Source: Alphaproteobacteria bacterium (GTDB taxonomy: Bacteria > Pseudomonadota > Alphaproteobacteria > Holosporales > JBOFFI01). Taken from it: a DNA stretch of 34,120 nt. Numbering within the stretch: position 1 is the first letter of the stretch; every line of letters starts with the position of its first letter. The DNA lies in NCBI GenBank assembly GCA_051657225.1, contig JBOFKH010000255.1, forward strand, positions 1-34,120, given 5' to 3'. A model generated the notes under the pieces. It worked only from the letters and a program-made list of their open reading frames with translations. It searched no databases and was not told where the DNA came from. This document shows positions 7,600-11,485 of this stretch, in pieces. The position numbers and the translations under genes were made by a program.

Positions 7600-7810
7600 C
7601 TCTATATCAAGCTGTAAAAAATATGTCTCTTTTGGATAAAAACAAAAGCTATCAAACGGCTATAGGATTCATTTTTCATTCATTCTTTATTTGCTTATAT
7701 TCACTTTGGTTGTTTTTTTTAGTTAAAAATAAGGGAATAAATAGTGTCAAAAAAAATAGTATCTTCTTTAATCATTGCAAGTTGTTGCTTCAACAGTCTG
7801 CCGGTTTATG
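7586..7810 (+). repeat. Duplicated 5' block, copy 1: last 14 bp of phrB, the intergenic region, and the first 22 codons of the downstream gene
   Basis: By eye it aligns with 9609-9833 at a constant offset of 2023 bp with about a dozen differences. The encoded MSKKIVSSLIIASCCFNSLPVY is identical in both copies. Confidence 0.9.
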
Positions 7811-9336
7811 CGGGCAAAAATTTTTCTTTAGGGGAGCAAAAACAGCACCGAAAAACACAAGCAAAGAGATCAAATTTTTTAGAAAAACAAGAAATAGATT
7901 TTTCAAATCAAAGGCGAATCAATGCTTCAGAAACTATGGATCATAGGGTCCTCTTAGCAGGCCTTGATTTCCCATCTCCTTTGAAAACTAAAGCAGCTCC
8001 ACATGGTAGACCAAATAATGCAGATATAGATTCCGATTTTTTTAAAAAAAGCATAGATTTAAGACAACACATACAAGAAAGTTTTGGAAATCTTTTAGAG
8101 GAACAAAAAATAAATTTTTCGAATCAAAAGCGAGCCAACATTTCAGGGTCTACAAATCTTAAGATGCTTCTAGCAGGTCTTATCTTCCTGTCTCTCTTGA
8201 GAACAAGTGAAGCAGCTCCACAAAATAGATCTTGCAATGCAGATATAGATTCTATTAATTTTTTTGATTTTTTTGATGTTCATACAGATTCAAAAAAAAT
8301 CGTAAAAGCGAGCTTCGGGACTTTGGGCCTTCCTCCAACGTGCCTTCATGAATTTCCTGAGAAGTCACTTAAAAATTTGGAAACAAGGCTAAGAGATGAA
8401 ATCAAGCAACGCGTTTTTGATTGTGTTAAGGCAAAAAACCTCACCACCTCTGAGAAAAATTTTATGGCCTTTGCTAAAAGAAAAACCTTTTCTTATCTTA
8501 CACTTCAGCCCAATCTTCAATTTGACCCTGTAGATCGAAAATTTGGTACTTATCTTGGTAAAACGCTGCTTAATTTTGATGATTACCAAGCACTCGAAAA
8601 GCGTTTTCCTTTTGGAATATCTGCAGTTTGCAATCAAAATTTTACTACCTTTTATATGCGATCCGCCAATACTAGTTTCTTTCTGCAAAGAACTGCTGGA
8701 AATGAGCTTCATCAAATAGAAGAGCTGGGCAGTAGACTGATGAGAGGATATTGTCTTGCTGAGGATGCTGATACCTCTTTCGTACCAGATGTTCCTTCCT
8801 GGTATGAGTTTTTAAATTCAGATGTTGCAAAAATAACTGGGATTGGAATTGCTGGAGTTGCTGTTGGCGCTGTAGCAACAGTTCTTGTGACTGAAGCGTG
8901 CAAAAAGAAGGCTCCTGAGTCGAAAAAATTAAGTTGTAAATTTAAAAATGGCGTTTCTCCTAAGGCAACGGTCAGTTTAATTTCAGACCCTACCCCCACA
9001 TCTATGCCTAAAATATGGAGCTACGCTGTGGGTGGAGGCCAAACAAGGTTTTCCCATTTAATAGAAAATCCAAGTTCCGAAAGCTCTGAACATGATCCGG
9101 ATTATCCAGCGGCAAAATCTTCTGGGAGCTCTGACCATGATCCCCATTACCTAGAGATGAAATCTGCGACAAAGACAGCGTATCCAAATTATGAAGAAGT
9201 GAAACCTAAAGAGGTGACGCGAAAACTCTATGATACACTTAAAAGTCCAGCTGTTCCAGTTAGGAATGAATATGCAAACGTAAAATTAGAGGAAAACTTT
9301 TTAACAGGGCAAACTTCGGCTGTTACAGCAAATTAA
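7744..9336 (+). CDS. Hypothetical exported single-pass membrane protein, paralog 1 (signal peptide, repeat-containing ectodomain, Gly-rich TM, Tyr/Pro/Ser-rich tail)
   Basis: 530-aa intact ORF in A/T-rich DNA. The GTG start is preceded by an AAGGGA RBS. The N-terminal signal peptide has a possible lipobox (IASC). The TM helix ITGIGIAGVAVGAVATVLV spans about 8833-8901 and is followed by a KKK basic patch. No family recognised. Confidence 0.75.
   Translation: MSKKIVSSLIIASCCFNSLPVYAGKNFSLGEQKQHRKTQAKRSNFLEKQEIDFSNQRRINASETMDHRVLLAGLDFPSPLKTKAAPHGRPNNADIDSDFFKKSIDLRQHIQESFGNLLEEQKINFSNQKRANISGSTNLKMLLAGLIFLSLLRTSEAAPQNRSCNADIDSINFFDFFDVHTDSKKIVKASFGTLGLPPTCLHEFPEKSLKNLETRLRDEIKQRVFDCVKAKNLTTSEKNFMAFAKRKTFSYLTLQPNLQFDPVDRKFGTYLGKTLLNFDDYQALEKRFPFGISAVCNQNFTTFYMRSANTSFFLQRTAGNELHQIEELGSRLMRGYCLAEDADTSFVPDVPSWYEFLNSDVAKITGIGIAGVAVGAVATVLVTEACKKKAPESKKLSCKFKNGVSPKATVSLISDPTPTSMPKIWSYAVGGGQTRFSHLIENPSSESSEHDPDYPAAKSSGSSDHDPHYLEMKSATKTAYPNYEEVKPKEVTRKLYDTLKSPAVPVRNEYANVKLEENFLTGQTSAVTAN
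7873..8265 (+). repeat. Internal tandem duplication in paralog 1 (two ~57-59 aa repeats, period 216 nt)
   Basis: NFLEKQEIDFSNQRRINASETMDHRVLLAGLDFPSPLKTKAAPHGRPNNADIDSDFF aligns with NLLEEQKINFSNQKRANISGSTNLKMLLAGLIFLSLLRTSEAAPQNRSCNADIDSINFF. Confidence 0.8.
9082..9171 (+). repeat. 45-nt tandem duplication in the paralog-1 tail (SSEHDPDY / SSDHDPHY)
   Basis: agctctgaacatgatcc at 9082 recurs as agctctgaccatgatcc at 9127. This duplicates a Tyr-containing acidic motif. Confidence 0.7.
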
Positions 9337-9608
9337 ACCGAACGCTTCTGCTCACTGATTTTTTCGTAAAAGCGAAGAATTTCATTACAAAAATGGTCTT
9401 GGGAAAAGTGAGTCAAAACTCTTTTTTGGCTTTCTTTCCCATGGCTTAGTGCTCTTACTTAAAATTAGAACTTATTCAAGCGCACTTAAAAAGCTTCCAA
9501 CCTGGCCGGACTGGAATAAAACTCCTGTTTCTTTAGGAGCGACAATCTCTTTTAAAGCGCCATGGTCTGCCAACAATCACTGGGCCCTCCATAGGTTCAC
9601 CTTTACAG
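9333..9608 (-). pseudogene. Decayed 3' fragment (~90 codons) of the glycosyltransferase gene at 11482-12657
   Basis: It aligns with 11482 to about 11755. Relative to the intact copy it has a 1-nt insertion (gttggcagacc vs gctgcagacc) and in-frame stops (for example CAA to TAA). It ends abruptly at the duplication junction 9608|9609. Confidence 0.85.
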
Positions 9609-9833
9609 CTGACCCACGCTAGCTCTATATCAAGCTGTAAAAAATATATCTCTTTTGGATAAAAACAAAAGCTATCAAATGGCTATAGGATTCATTTTTA
9701 ATTCATTCTTTATTTACTTATATTCATTTGGATTGTTTTTTGTTAATTAAAATAAGGGAATAAATAGTGTCAAAGAAAATAGTATCTTCTTTAATCATTG
9801 CAAGTTGTTGCTTCAACAGTCTGCCGGTTTATG
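9609..9833 (+). repeat. Duplicated 5' block, copy 2 (includes a 14-bp relic of the phrB 3' end, ctgacccacgctag)
   Basis: See copy 1. The relic of the phrB stop region sits directly against the glycosyltransferase fragment, which marks a tandem-duplication joint. Confidence 0.9.
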
Positions 9834-11485
9834 GAATTTTTGATGTTTCAACTCTTGGCGCAGCATTAGAAAACACAGAAATAGGAAAGATGTATGCTGG
9901 CCCGCAGTCTGTTAATACTAATCCACAGTCTTTAGCTCAAGAAATAGAAGGAAGCGTGAGTCAAGCAGCAAACGCACTGGAGCAGAGCATGCACACTGCT
10001 CGTAAGCTTGGATGGGGGAAAAGAACAGTCAGGGCCAGGAGATCCGCAAAAAAAGACTGTGACACAAAGCAACATTCCCAAGAGGAGTTAAAAAAATATT
10101 TTACTTCTCCAGGAGCAACCCATGCTTACATACTCCCCGTTCCCAGAATTAGCATACTCTCGTCAGGTGAAATTGAAGCTGATTATGGTTCTATGGCTTC
10201 ATCGTTAAAGGATTTTCAATATCAAGTTGAAAGTCAAGAACGTAATTTTTTTGCATCAGCTGTGCCTTCAGGAGGATCTTGTATAATCTACCAGACCCAA
10301 TTGGGGGGTGCATCCCTCTTTGGACTCGGTGACAGAAATGAAGCGGGAACCCTCGAAACATTTGCAAAAAAAACAACGGAAAAGAGATTTTTTGAATTTT
10401 TTAATTCCAGAAATAAACAACATGTTGTACTTCCTGAGGGAGGGATTTACGGTTTTGTTAATCTTTTGTCAAATATAGAGGGAGATAAAAACAAGGGAAT
10501 ATTCAAGGCTTCCCTTGGTCACAATCGACTTGATTTTCATAAATACAATGCAAAAATCTCAGGCCCTCACTTGCTTGCCTTCTACAATCAAGAAAAAACA
10601 CTTTTTGCGTTGCAAGACCAGGATGATTATATCGAACTTAGAACAGAGTCGGGTAATCAACTCGCTCAACTTGGAAATGAGGCAACGCATTTTTTAAAGA
10701 GCCTTTTTGAAGGGAGCGTTGTCAAAAATTATTTCCCCGAAGAGCTAGCAATAGCACCGACAACAGAGCCTTTTTTGTCTGCACTTTCTTTAAATCCTGA
10801 ACCGAACTTAAGCATCAGCTACAGCAGCACAGGAGCTCCCATGTTACCTCCCATTCAGAGGCAACTTCCAGCAGCAAGCAGCAGTGACTATAATTTCAAA
10901 GATATAGGCATTGGCGCAGCTGCCGTTTTTGGTGGCGTGGCTGTTGGCGGCATGGCTGTTGTTGTTAGCATTATTTGCCTATTAAAAAAATTCTTTGGAA
11001 ATCAGAAGCACTCTAACAGGGGACAAAGGGACAAAAAAAATAGTCCTCCCAGTGTAAGCTACGCTTCAAACTCCCTGCAAGAATCTAGAAGCCTCGTGAG
11101 ACAGGGAAGCCAAGATATGCTAAGAGAACCTGCCGACGGAGCAGTGATAGCAAAGGCAGAAACAGAATACGAACCACCCCGCGTTTTTTCCGCTAGTACT
11201 TTACGTCTCTCAGATGAACACCCCAGGCCACCTACATACATAGAGATTGGAGAATCTCCTCAAGATCTTTTTTCTGACAGCTATTTTGGCTCTACGGATA
11301 GCGGCTATTCAGGAGCTGCGAGCACGTATTTAGAAATGCATCCTATGCCCAAAAGCATAAGCCCCAGTGACGCATACGCAAATTCCCCTCAAGTACCACC
11401 CCGTCCAACTTCAAAAGAAAACCACTATGACACATTCTTTGGTTCTAAGCCTCTGAACGGCCATCAAGGCTTTCAAGTTCCCTAA
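9767..11485 (+). CDS. Hypothetical exported single-pass membrane protein, paralog 2 (same architecture as 7744-9336)
   Basis: 572-aa intact ORF with the same GTG start, RBS and 22-aa signal peptide. The TM helix IGIGAAAVFGGVAVGGMAVVVSIICLL spans about 10904-10984 and is followed by KKFFGNQKHSNRGQRDKK. The 166-aa tail is Ser/Pro/Tyr-rich. The TM region is recognisably homologous to paralog 1. Confidence 0.75.
   Translation: MSKKIVSSLIIASCCFNSLPVYGIFDVSTLGAALENTEIGKMYAGPQSVNTNPQSLAQEIEGSVSQAANALEQSMHTARKLGWGKRTVRARRSAKKDCDTKQHSQEELKKYFTSPGATHAYILPVPRISILSSGEIEADYGSMASSLKDFQYQVESQERNFFASAVPSGGSCIIYQTQLGGASLFGLGDRNEAGTLETFAKKTTEKRFFEFFNSRNKQHVVLPEGGIYGFVNLLSNIEGDKNKGIFKASLGHNRLDFHKYNAKISGPHLLAFYNQEKTLFALQDQDDYIELRTESGNQLAQLGNEATHFLKSLFEGSVVKNYFPEELAIAPTTEPFLSALSLNPEPNLSISYSSTGAPMLPPIQRQLPAASSSDYNFKDIGIGAAAVFGGVAVGGMAVVVSIICLLKKFFGNQKHSNRGQRDKKNSPPSVSYASNSLQESRSLVRQGSQDMLREPADGAVIAKAETEYEPPRVFSASTLRLSDEHPRPPTYIEIGESPQDLFSDSYFGSTDSGYSGAASTYLEMHPMPKSISPSDAYANSPQVPPRPTSKENHYDTFFGSKPLNGHQGFQVP

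Follow-up and report, generated by a model that had tools for sequence, protein, structure and literature searches.

Tandem genes of a lineage-restricted family of predicted type I membrane proteins carry conserved tyrosine motifs in their tails

In a 34,120-nucleotide stretch of alphaproteobacterial DNA (the whole of contig JBOFKH010000255.1 of assembly GCA_051657225.1; hereafter the window), two genes in tandem, ORF1 and ORF2 (ORF, open reading frame), lie between a photolyase gene and a GT4 glycosyltransferase gene. They appear to be diverged copies of one lineage-restricted, co-regulated and fast-evolving family of Sec-exported type I inner-membrane proteins. After cleavage behind a conserved leader, each protein would display a two-lobed α/β domain in the periplasm on a flexible Pro/Ser/Thr stalk of ~60 residues. 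A Gly-rich helix and a Lys/Arg stop-transfer patch would anchor it in the membrane, and a disordered tail of ~150 residues would be left in the bacterial cytoplasm. We tentatively propose that the proteins are receptors or tethers. The rapidly diversifying periplasmic domain would engage a variable ligand, either envelope-borne or extracellular, and the better-conserved tail would be a docking strip, whose S/D-rich-YLEM, Y[DE]x[hydrophobic/Pro] and AYxN motifs would bind conserved partners on the cytoplasmic side. This model was chosen because every topological signal points to a tail in the bacterial cytoplasm. The periplasmic location, the topology, the docking function and the bacterial identity of the partners are what we infer.

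A preliminary description of the window had called the pair a candidate host-mimic module with two ectodomains of no recognised family. The latter still holds. ORF1 and ORF2 had no match in Pfam, NCBIfam, PADLOC or PHROGs, and a PDB sequence profile likewise gave no credible match. Among 5.8 billion proteins, a word-indexed search matched orthologs in sister metagenome-assembled genomes (MAGs) and nothing else. When 1.84 billion representatives were searched exhaustively with a profile, 14 clusters emerged, all from one alphaproteobacterial lineage and on bacterial contigs with bacterial neighbour genes; one of them, P0141, a repeat protein matching over only 35 residues, is probably spurious. 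Two metagenome scans for further members found none. The orthologs of ORF1 are P0012 (66% identity) and P0133, and those of ORF2 are P0007, P0008, P0009, P0010 and L009 (52-90%). Two other origins were considered and rejected: a horizontally acquired eukaryotic receptor, given that neither Pfam nor PDB gave a sequence match and PDB gave no fold match, and a phage origin or anti-phage role, given the empty PADLOC and PHROG searches and the absence of the family's leader DNA pattern from IMG/VR. Because no described match was found by sequence or fold and membership tests against known kinds of protein failed, the family appears to be new at the level of protein family and architecture; a new mechanism is not part of this claim.

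The ectodomains of ORF1 and ORF2 share a domain of ~200 residues (BLASTP identity 26%, E 3e-13), on which family alignments and the profile search agree. The transmembrane (TM) helix had previously been taken for the only clearly homologous internal segment, which understated the relationship. Lobe 1 of the domain is partly deleted in ORF1. With an alignment of 17 sequences, AlphaFold2 modelled residues 95-330 of ORF2 at a predicted local distance difference test score (pLDDT) of 87.4 and a predicted TM-score (pTM) of 0.82. This domain-only model was used instead of a full-length prediction from 7 sequences, which was poor (pLDDT 41) and whose PDB search was uninformative. Lobe 1 and lobe 2 of the ORF2 domain are detectably homologous (hhalign probability 86%, E 5e-6) and thus reflect an internal duplication. 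Foldseek comparison of the domain model with PDB and BFVD gave no match at E<=1e-3, with TM-scores <=0.2. Two-lobed clamps such as PCNA were tried as fold relatives and rejected, the resemblance being a vague echo with TM-scores of 0.13-0.2.

Each protein has one strong hydrophobic segment (Kyte-Doolittle 2.2-2.4). In ORF1 and ORF2 the 15 residues after it contain 5 Lys+Arg, compared with 1-2 on the N-terminal side. All 18 members examined obey the positive-inside rule: 3-7 Lys+Arg lie within the 15 residues that follow the helix, compared with 0-2 on its N-terminal side. The Sec-type leader, the single hydrophobic helix and the positive-inside patch therefore predict a type I inner-membrane protein with its domain in the periplasm and its tail in the bacterial cytoplasm. 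The lineage is diderm, as a lipopolysaccharide pathway in the neighbourhood of one family paralog shows. The predicted periplasmic part has ~340-355 residues, including the confidently modelled 215-residue domain, and contains conserved cysteines. A lipoprotein reading was rejected: the lipobox [LVI][ASTVI][GAS]C is fitted by IAS/C (the slash marks the cleavage site) in ORF1, ORF2 and P0138 only, and is not conserved, other members having ASY/C, AGF/C, AAY/F or no Cys at this position. The conserved PV[YVQ]A/G site fits signal peptidase I instead. Sorting signals of the sortase or exosortase type were also rejected, since NCBIfam gave no match and the tails extend beyond the basic patch (147 and 166 residues here; 18-272 in the family).

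The tails of ORF1 and ORF2 are rich in Ser (13-15%) and Pro (9-11%), contain 4.8% Tyr and are disordered in the prediction (pLDDT <50). Both carry all four motif classes reported for them before, namely YxxM (YLEM), YEEI-like (YEEV/YIEI), YxN and Yxx-hydrophobic (YDT[LF]). When the two tails were shuffled independently, as the preliminary description had proposed as a control, 1e-5 of the trials produced all four classes in both, and 1.5% produced the same Yxxx tetrapeptide in both. That description had considered the tails otherwise unalignable, which did not hold up. Among 7 sequences they align collinearly: YLEM is invariant (7/7), and AYxN, [EQ]VxP and the Asp and Thr of YDT keep their order; in P0010 the Tyr of YDT has been lost. 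Because the tails are homologous and collinear, the shared motifs seem mostly inherited rather than convergent. The YEEI-like motif was probably gained or lost separately in each clade, since YEEV of ORF1 aligns with SPQV of ORF2 and YIEI of ORF2 aligns with LIEN of ORF1. The Tyr of YLEM is kept in P0134, whose protein terminates at that residue, and across the ORF2 clade neither YLEMHP nor the Tyr of YEPP varies. In the tails of this clade, mean conservation is 0.85 for Tyr, compared with 0.65 for all residues. Tail and ectodomain show the same identity within the ORF2 clade, and the tail is the more similar part in both orthologs of the ORF1 clade (0.81 vs 0.65 and 0.52 vs 0.42). EPIYA itself is absent; EPIYA-like contexts (NEYANV, DAYANS, TEYEPP and, in P0133, PIYEEI) occur in the disordered region.

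The conservation of the tail stands out in a gene that changes quickly. Compared with its counterparts in L001, L002 and L009, which are the closest genomes, the family gene has a nonsynonymous divergence (dN) of 0.12-0.22 and a ratio to synonymous divergence (dN/dS) of 0.39-0.59, ectodomain and tail alike (0.39-0.61 for the tail). The neighbouring photolyase, polyprenyl synthase and HAD genes have dN of 0.013-0.032 and dN/dS of 0.07-0.12 (0.07-0.12 for the photolyase) with the same partner genomes. Since dS is similar, the higher dN indicates that the protein evolves 5-10 times faster than its neighbours.

Because the tail motifs are kept between paralogs of ~25% identity, tail identity is at least that of the ectodomain and Y[DE]x[LIVMFP] is enriched, the tyrosine motifs look selected. 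Several points weigh against reading them as docking sites for bacterial partners. The enrichment (10 observed vs 1.03 in shuffles of nine tails of <=50% identity, P<5e-5) was counted for a pattern picked after inspection of the data, and 4 of the nine tails are mutually homologous. Bacterial readers of Y[DE]x[hydrophobic] or YxxM are not known to us. The eukaryotic readers, SH2 domains and AP-2 mu2, are textbook knowledge, so the motif grammar points outside the bacterium. The topology is deduced from the signal peptide, hydropathy and the positive-inside rule. The ligand and the partners are postulated. Several paralogs have tails of 18-41 residues without a Tyr motif, and docking can therefore serve only part of the family. 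The long tail is thus an add-on to an envelope protein and not the family's core.

Could the motifs have no specific function? They may be a by-product of descent and of the composition of a disordered linker in otherwise ordinary lineage-specific envelope proteins, a reading that we find quite improbable. The homology of the ORF1 and ORF2 tails makes convergence unnecessary, the dN/dS of the tail indicates only moderate constraint, P0010 has lost 6 of its 8 tail tyrosines, and the short-tailed paralogs do without motifs. In the nine tails, YxxP (P 0.21) and YxN (P 0.24) are not enriched. The same tails contain YD 8 times vs 1.7 expected and Yxx[LIVMF] 15 times vs 6.0, and the roughly ten-fold excess of Y[DE]x[LIVMFP] includes the non-homologous tails of P0143 and P0144. 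Absence of function would also leave unexplained that YLEM is invariant among otherwise ~25%-identical sequences, that its Tyr is retained at the very end of P0134 and that the ORF1-clade tail is more conserved than the folded domain.

If the motifs are functional, they might be read by a host. The tail would reach the cytosol of a eukaryotic cell, through a host-derived membrane or by intramembrane cleavage followed by export. Host kinases would phosphorylate its tyrosines, and SH2 or endocytic adaptors would be recruited to a multi-docking platform like Tir, CagA or Tarp. The readers would be of the PI3K type for YxxM, the Src type for YEE[IV], the Grb2 type for YxN and the Nck/Crk type, or AP-2, for YDx[hydrophobic/Pro]. 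We consider this unlikely. It is kept alive because the motif grammar matches SH2 and sorting signals and no bacterial reader is known to us. It also outlived the tests set for it in advance, because no common bacterial family is matched by the ectodomain, orthologs conserve the tails and the motif set is not reproduced by shuffles. Of the original host-mimic proposal, the receptor-like layout stood, and the tail motifs look selected; homology to a eukaryotic receptor did not emerge for any part of the proteins, and the tail is predicted to lie in the bacterial cytoplasm, in line with the caveat attached to that proposal that Sec export leaves the tail on the bacterial side.

Several other features fit a host-directed tail. 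Acidic or Ser-rich residues precede the tyrosines in a disordered context, P0133 contains PIYEEI, and the fast-evolving ectodomain and mosaic locus are expected of an interface under conflict. P0144, a syntenic member (L004, 1-1797), has a PxxP-rich tail of 272 residues with YDQV, YDQL, YAVP and RPLPKPP/TLPRPP. However, P0144 lacks the leader and lobe 1 and has in-frame stops upstream of a retained ORF of 512 codons. A recently formed pseudogene, a gene truncated at its 5' end and an error of assembly are possible explanations. The nearest named relatives of the BipA protein encoded in the window include the amoeba symbionts Paracaedibacteraceae and Odyssella (~67%), but free-living Rhodospirillales are equally close. 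No secretion system or eukaryote-like domain was seen in ~120 kb of readable lineage DNA, and there was no sign of a host.

Delivery is a difficulty. The combination of Sec leader, strongly hydrophobic TM helix and positive-inside patch is that expected of a stable inner-membrane protein. To our knowledge, EPIYA-class effectors lack Sec leaders, being substrates taken from the cytoplasm. Known phosphotyrosine (pTyr) effectors do act through such motifs, but those of the EPIYA class are delivered as substrates of type III or type IV secretion systems (T3SS, T4SS) (PMC3593179). A cytoplasm-facing C-terminus is what T4SS coupling proteins require, but two-step T4SS export, the single route documented for effectors that integrate into the inner membrane, fails with a large periplasmic part: inner-membrane-integrated T4SS effectors have periplasmic loops mostly <30 residues long, and an 8.6-kDa insert lowers translocation by 80% (PMC11602083). 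With a periplasmic part of ~350 residues, folded in the model and containing conserved cysteines, export of the whole protein by a Legionella-type two-step T4SS was judged unlikely. Rather unlikely, too, is that the tails reach the host cytosol by a route undescribed for a Sec-exported type I protein and serve there as a multi-adaptor scaffold resembling Tir or K15. Candidate routes would be cleavage within the Gly-rich helix with subsequent export of the tail, or transfer of inner-membrane material to a host-derived membrane. Even less likely is a variant in which the motifs are both written and read inside the bacterium, as a native bacterial pTyr-docking receptor system.

The 5' regions of the family genes are conserved. 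The family leader has the consensus MSKKIxSSLxIASxCxNSxPVxA/G, and the 22-residue signal peptides of ORF1 and ORF2 are identical, as described before. A degenerate DNA pattern of the leader occurred in only three sister MAGs (isolate names of the form WFFMC_MAG_n) among 185,579 species genomes, twice in the window vs 0 expected, and gave no match in metagenome collections or IMG/VR. Unlinked paralogs exist in the same genomes, at least three in MAG_370 and three on separate contigs of one JGI (Joint Genome Institute) metagenome. The ~130 nucleotides upstream of the start (within 7600-7743 of the window) are conserved at unlinked paralogs (upstream regions of L006, L007, L008, L010 and L011) and hold a promoter-like TTTTCA-17-TATATT (TATATT being a -10-like box), a TATCAAA..GCTATAG element and a Shine-Dalgarno sequence. 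That the leader and this promoter-containing DNA are common to unlinked members implies co-regulation. A riboswitch or structured leader was rejected, as an Rfam scan of the window found one tRNA and nothing else and RNAalifold gave 0 pairs. Because no conserved RNA structure was found, the conserved 5' stretch is probably a shared promoter or operator.

Homopolymer runs accompany this region. ORF1 has an A8 run (7749-7756) in codons 2-4, which in ORF2 is interrupted as AAAGAAAA (9772-9779), and nearly all paralogs have A7-A8 at codons 2-4. The A8 run and the T8 run upstream of ORF1 could be slipped-strand switches.

The same features may be read in terms of processing. A rhomboid- or S2P-type protease would cut the Gly-rich helix and release the stalked domain to the periplasm, the surface or the medium; the freed tail would be degraded or would signal, and the conserved 5' module and recombining locus would serve antigenic or receptor variation. 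The type I helix begins with GIGxxG-type small residues conserved family-wide. The conserved promoter and leader, the mosaic N-termini, the tandem alleles, the A7-A8 runs and the rapid protein evolution also suit this scheme. We nevertheless think it very doubtful. No protease gene is linked to the locus, NCBIfam recognised no C-terminal sorting signal, tails of 18-272 residues are too long for the sortase type, and a discarded tail should not match or exceed the ectodomain in conservation.

The history of the pair can be read from the DNA around it (Table 1). Positions 7576-7810, which run from the last 24 nucleotides of the photolyase gene through the intergenic DNA into the leader, are 94% identical to 9599-9833 over 235 nucleotides. 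The spacer between ORF1 and ORF2 (9337-9766) is fully accounted for by a GT4 3'-end remnant and, after it, a second upstream module; the two overlap by a few bases. Because the whole spacer consists of copies of both flanks, the pair arose by tandem duplication or recombination of a ~2-kb unit at the site flanked by photolyase and GT4. The photolyase flank is syntenic in L001, L002 and L003, and the GT4 flank in L001, L002, L004 and L011. A single family gene occupies the site in L001 and L002. Two are present in the window and in a 4.2-kb contig with P0012 and P0007. In one other genome, an ORF1-type gene adjoins GT4 and an ORF2-type gene adjoins the photolyase, on separate contigs (L011, L013). 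The N-terminal regions of the family are mosaic; P0009, for instance, has an ORF1-like N-terminus on an ORF2-like body. Together, these arrangements mark the photolyase-GT4 locus as a recombination hotspot. Further evidence of rearrangement between genomes comes from L003, where the position taken elsewhere by GT4, downstream of P0010, holds an exported ORF of 224 residues (12074-12748, forward strand) with two copies of the repeat KMYFQRVLGAREAGIDxKNVSDLFTY.

Table 1. Features of the tandem locus and its flanks (window coordinates)
Feature	Position	Strand	Description
Photolyase gene	6157-7599	+	Pfam DNA_photolyase and FAD_binding_7; conserved upstream flank of the variable locus
Upstream module, copy 1	7576-7743	+	Last 24 nt of the photolyase gene, promoter-like site, T8 run, Shine-Dalgarno; 93-94% identical to 9599-9766
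Promoter-like site, copy 1	7673-7701		TTTTCA-17-TATATT (promoter scan)
T8 run, copy 1	7713-7720		T6 at the equivalent place upstream of ORF2
Shine-Dalgarno, copy 1	7731-7736		AAGGGA
ORF1	7744-9336	+	530 residues, GTG start; leader, basic/hydrophobic N-terminal region, conserved domain, TM helix, tail
ORF1 signal peptide	7744-7812	+	MSKKIVSSLIIASCCFNSLPVYA/G; 22 residues identical to the ORF2 leader; contains the A8 run
ORF1 conserved domain, predicted periplasmic	8233-8748	+	Residues ~164-335; aligned to the ORF2 domain, profile matches
ORF1 Gly-rich TM helix	8833-8892	+	ITGIGIAGVAVGAVATVLVT; residues 364-383; hydropathy 2.24; 5 Lys+Arg in C-flank vs 1 in N-flank
ORF1 tail	8893-9333	+	147 residues, predicted cytoplasmic and disordered; YLEM (9148-9159), AYPNYEEV, YDTL, YANV
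GT4 3'-end remnant	9337-9603	-	From segmental duplication; 82.7% identical to 11486-11756, 84.6% to L009
Upstream module, copy 2	9599-9766	+	Photolyase 3'-end remnant, promoter, Shine-Dalgarno; 92.9% identical to 7576-7743
ORF2	9767-11485	+	572 residues, GTG start, MGL5720569.1; leader, variable N-terminal region, two-lobed domain, stalk, TM helix, tail
ORF2 two-lobed α/β domain	10061-10711	+	Residues ~99-315; two beta3-alpha-beta3-long-alpha modules (predicted)
ORF2 Pro/Ser/Thr-rich stalk	10715-10903	+	Residues 317-379; predicted disordered, pLDDT <50
ORF2 Gly-rich TM helix	10904-10984	+	IGIGAAAVFGGVAVGGMAVVVSIICLL; residues 380-406; hydropathy 2.44; C-flank with 5 Lys+Arg, 0 acidic
ORF2 tail	10985-11482	+	166 residues, predicted cytoplasmic and disordered; YEPP, YIEI, YLEM (11327-11338), AYANS, YDTF
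GT4 glycosyltransferase gene	11482-12732	-	Pfam Glycos_transf_1 and Glyco_transf_4; conserved downstream flank of the variable locus

The lengths of the two ORFs and their receptor-like type I layout (signal peptide, ectodomain, Gly-rich TM helix, Lys/Arg patch, tail) agree with the preliminary description. NCBI annotation places the start of ORF1 (P0011) ~79 codons downstream, giving a product of 451 residues without the leader. The Shine-Dalgarno sequence and the conservation of the leader across the family support the GTG listed in Table 1 as the true start. An overlapping ORF of 107 residues (7623-7946), which spans the conserved promoter and leader in another frame, was judged probably spurious. 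Within ORF1, a tandem duplication of 219 nucleotides (73 residues; 7986-8033 and 8205-8252, residues ~47-192) repeats a module consisting of a basic stretch, an LLAGL hydrophobic segment, AAP and NADIDS; in the first copy, the hydrophobic part is degenerate. Behind the long basic stretch, ORF1 has another short hydrophobic segment with (S/Q)E(A/T)AP after it (residues ~133-157, ~8140-8214), which is also present in P0009, P0010, P0134-P0137, P0140 and P0142. ORF2 and P0008 have an unrelated segment in its place. The resulting N1-H1-N2-H2-C layout recalls extended signal peptides.

The pair sits among ordinary core genes, as noted before. The surrounding genes in the window encode Lon, a polyprenyl synthase, a HAD hydrolase, the photolyase, the GT4 glycosyltransferase, UvrC, S1, RNase J, ProRS, BipA, DprA and FtsW. 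The A/T-rich character of the two genes was likewise described correctly: their G+C content is 0.35-0.41, compared with 0.45-0.49 in the flanks. The named relatives nearest to BipA are only 67-70% identical and mix Paracaedibacteraceae and Odyssella with free-living Rhodospirillales; for this reason the lineage of the window is placed as a deep alphaproteobacterium, and BipA resolves it no further.

Elsewhere in the window, the Lon gene (21-1898) is interrupted by the contig end and encodes 625 residues, compared with 813 in L001 and L002; the gene order from Lon to a DsbA-like gene is otherwise collinear with a 253-kb contig of GCA_965186715.1. At 18014-18688 on the reverse strand, an ORF of 224 residues resembles a signal peptide at its N-terminus and consists of a Cys-rich and a Pro-rich half, the latter with two copies of IQNMGP(N/D)NIPPYRKP; it matches nothing in Pfam or NCBIfam. 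Two different small ORFs, of 91 and 102 residues, occupy the syntenic spot in L001 and L002, so its product is a further exported protein that varies.

Should the tails be docking strips, they would show that selection can retain short Tyr-centred linear motifs in a bacterial single-pass membrane protein. Read by the bacterium, they would represent a receptor-type signalling layout undescribed in bacteria; read by a host, they would define a new class of host-mimic scaffold requiring a new delivery route. The motifs YLEM, YDTL/YDTF/YDTP and YEEV/YEEI provide concrete peptides for testing. In addition, the family offers a confidently modelled, predicted periplasmic domain without known fold relative in PDB or BFVD. 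It is also a clear case, from a little-known alphaproteobacterial lineage, of an envelope gene family that recombines, is co-regulated and evolves fast. Its reach is limited by its restriction to a handful of related MAGs.

Parts of this architecture resemble known systems. The C-terminal sorting signals of LPXTG, PEP-CTERM and GlyGly-CTERM/rhombosortase proteins, and rhomboid substrates, have the same series of exported domain, Thr/Pro-rich linker, Gly-rich helix and basic cluster, and the short-tailed paralogs P0143 and P0135 come nearest to this layout. Unlike these proteins, the family has no signature motif before the helix, no NCBIfam match and tails that run 18-272 residues past the basic patch. 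Variable envelope families with conserved 5' modules include msp2/p44 and omp-1 of Anaplasma/Ehrlichia and Vlp/Vsp of mycoplasmas. Like the present family, they have multiple paralogs per genome whose promoter and leader are conserved and whose mature parts diverge; mosaic N-termini, alleles in tandem and homopolymer runs close to the start codon are further common points. However, they are outer-membrane porins or lipoproteins, whereas the proteins described here are predicted to be type I inner-membrane proteins with cytoplasmic tails, in which switching would be a possibility.

The Legionella Dot/Icm TM effectors (SidF, LegC3) have a hydrophobic TM segment, an inner-membrane intermediate and a cytoplasm-facing C-terminus, as predicted here, and the coupling complex reads the effector signal at that C-terminus (PMC11602083). 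They differ in their short loops, compared with ~350 periplasmic residues here, and show no homology; Dot/Icm or VirB genes were not seen in the ~120 kb of lineage DNA that was read.

Tir and the EPIYA-class effectors (CagA, Tarp, BepD-F, AnkA) have disordered regions with several Tyr motifs of the SH2-docking type, like the tails described here. Tir Y474 reportedly lies in an IYDEV context, with which YDTL, YDTF, YDTP, YDQV (P0144) and PIYEEI (P0133) are comparable. Tir is also a membrane-embedded pseudo-receptor, but it has two TM helices and both of its ends in the host cytosol. In contrast to this class, the present proteins have a cleavable-type leader, one TM helix and a large, predicted periplasmic domain, and they have no canonical EPIYA and no sequence or fold homology to it.

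Viral docking scaffolds with Tyr motifs include vaccinia A36R (YDSV), KSHV K15 (YEEV) and polyomavirus middle T. They are made inside the host cell, so that their topology is not in question; their sequences are unrelated to the present family, and BFVD gave no fold match to the ectodomain. In their single-pass anchor and disordered cytosolic tail with varied SH2-type motifs, they are the closest functional analogy for the grammar of the ORF1 and ORF2 tails.

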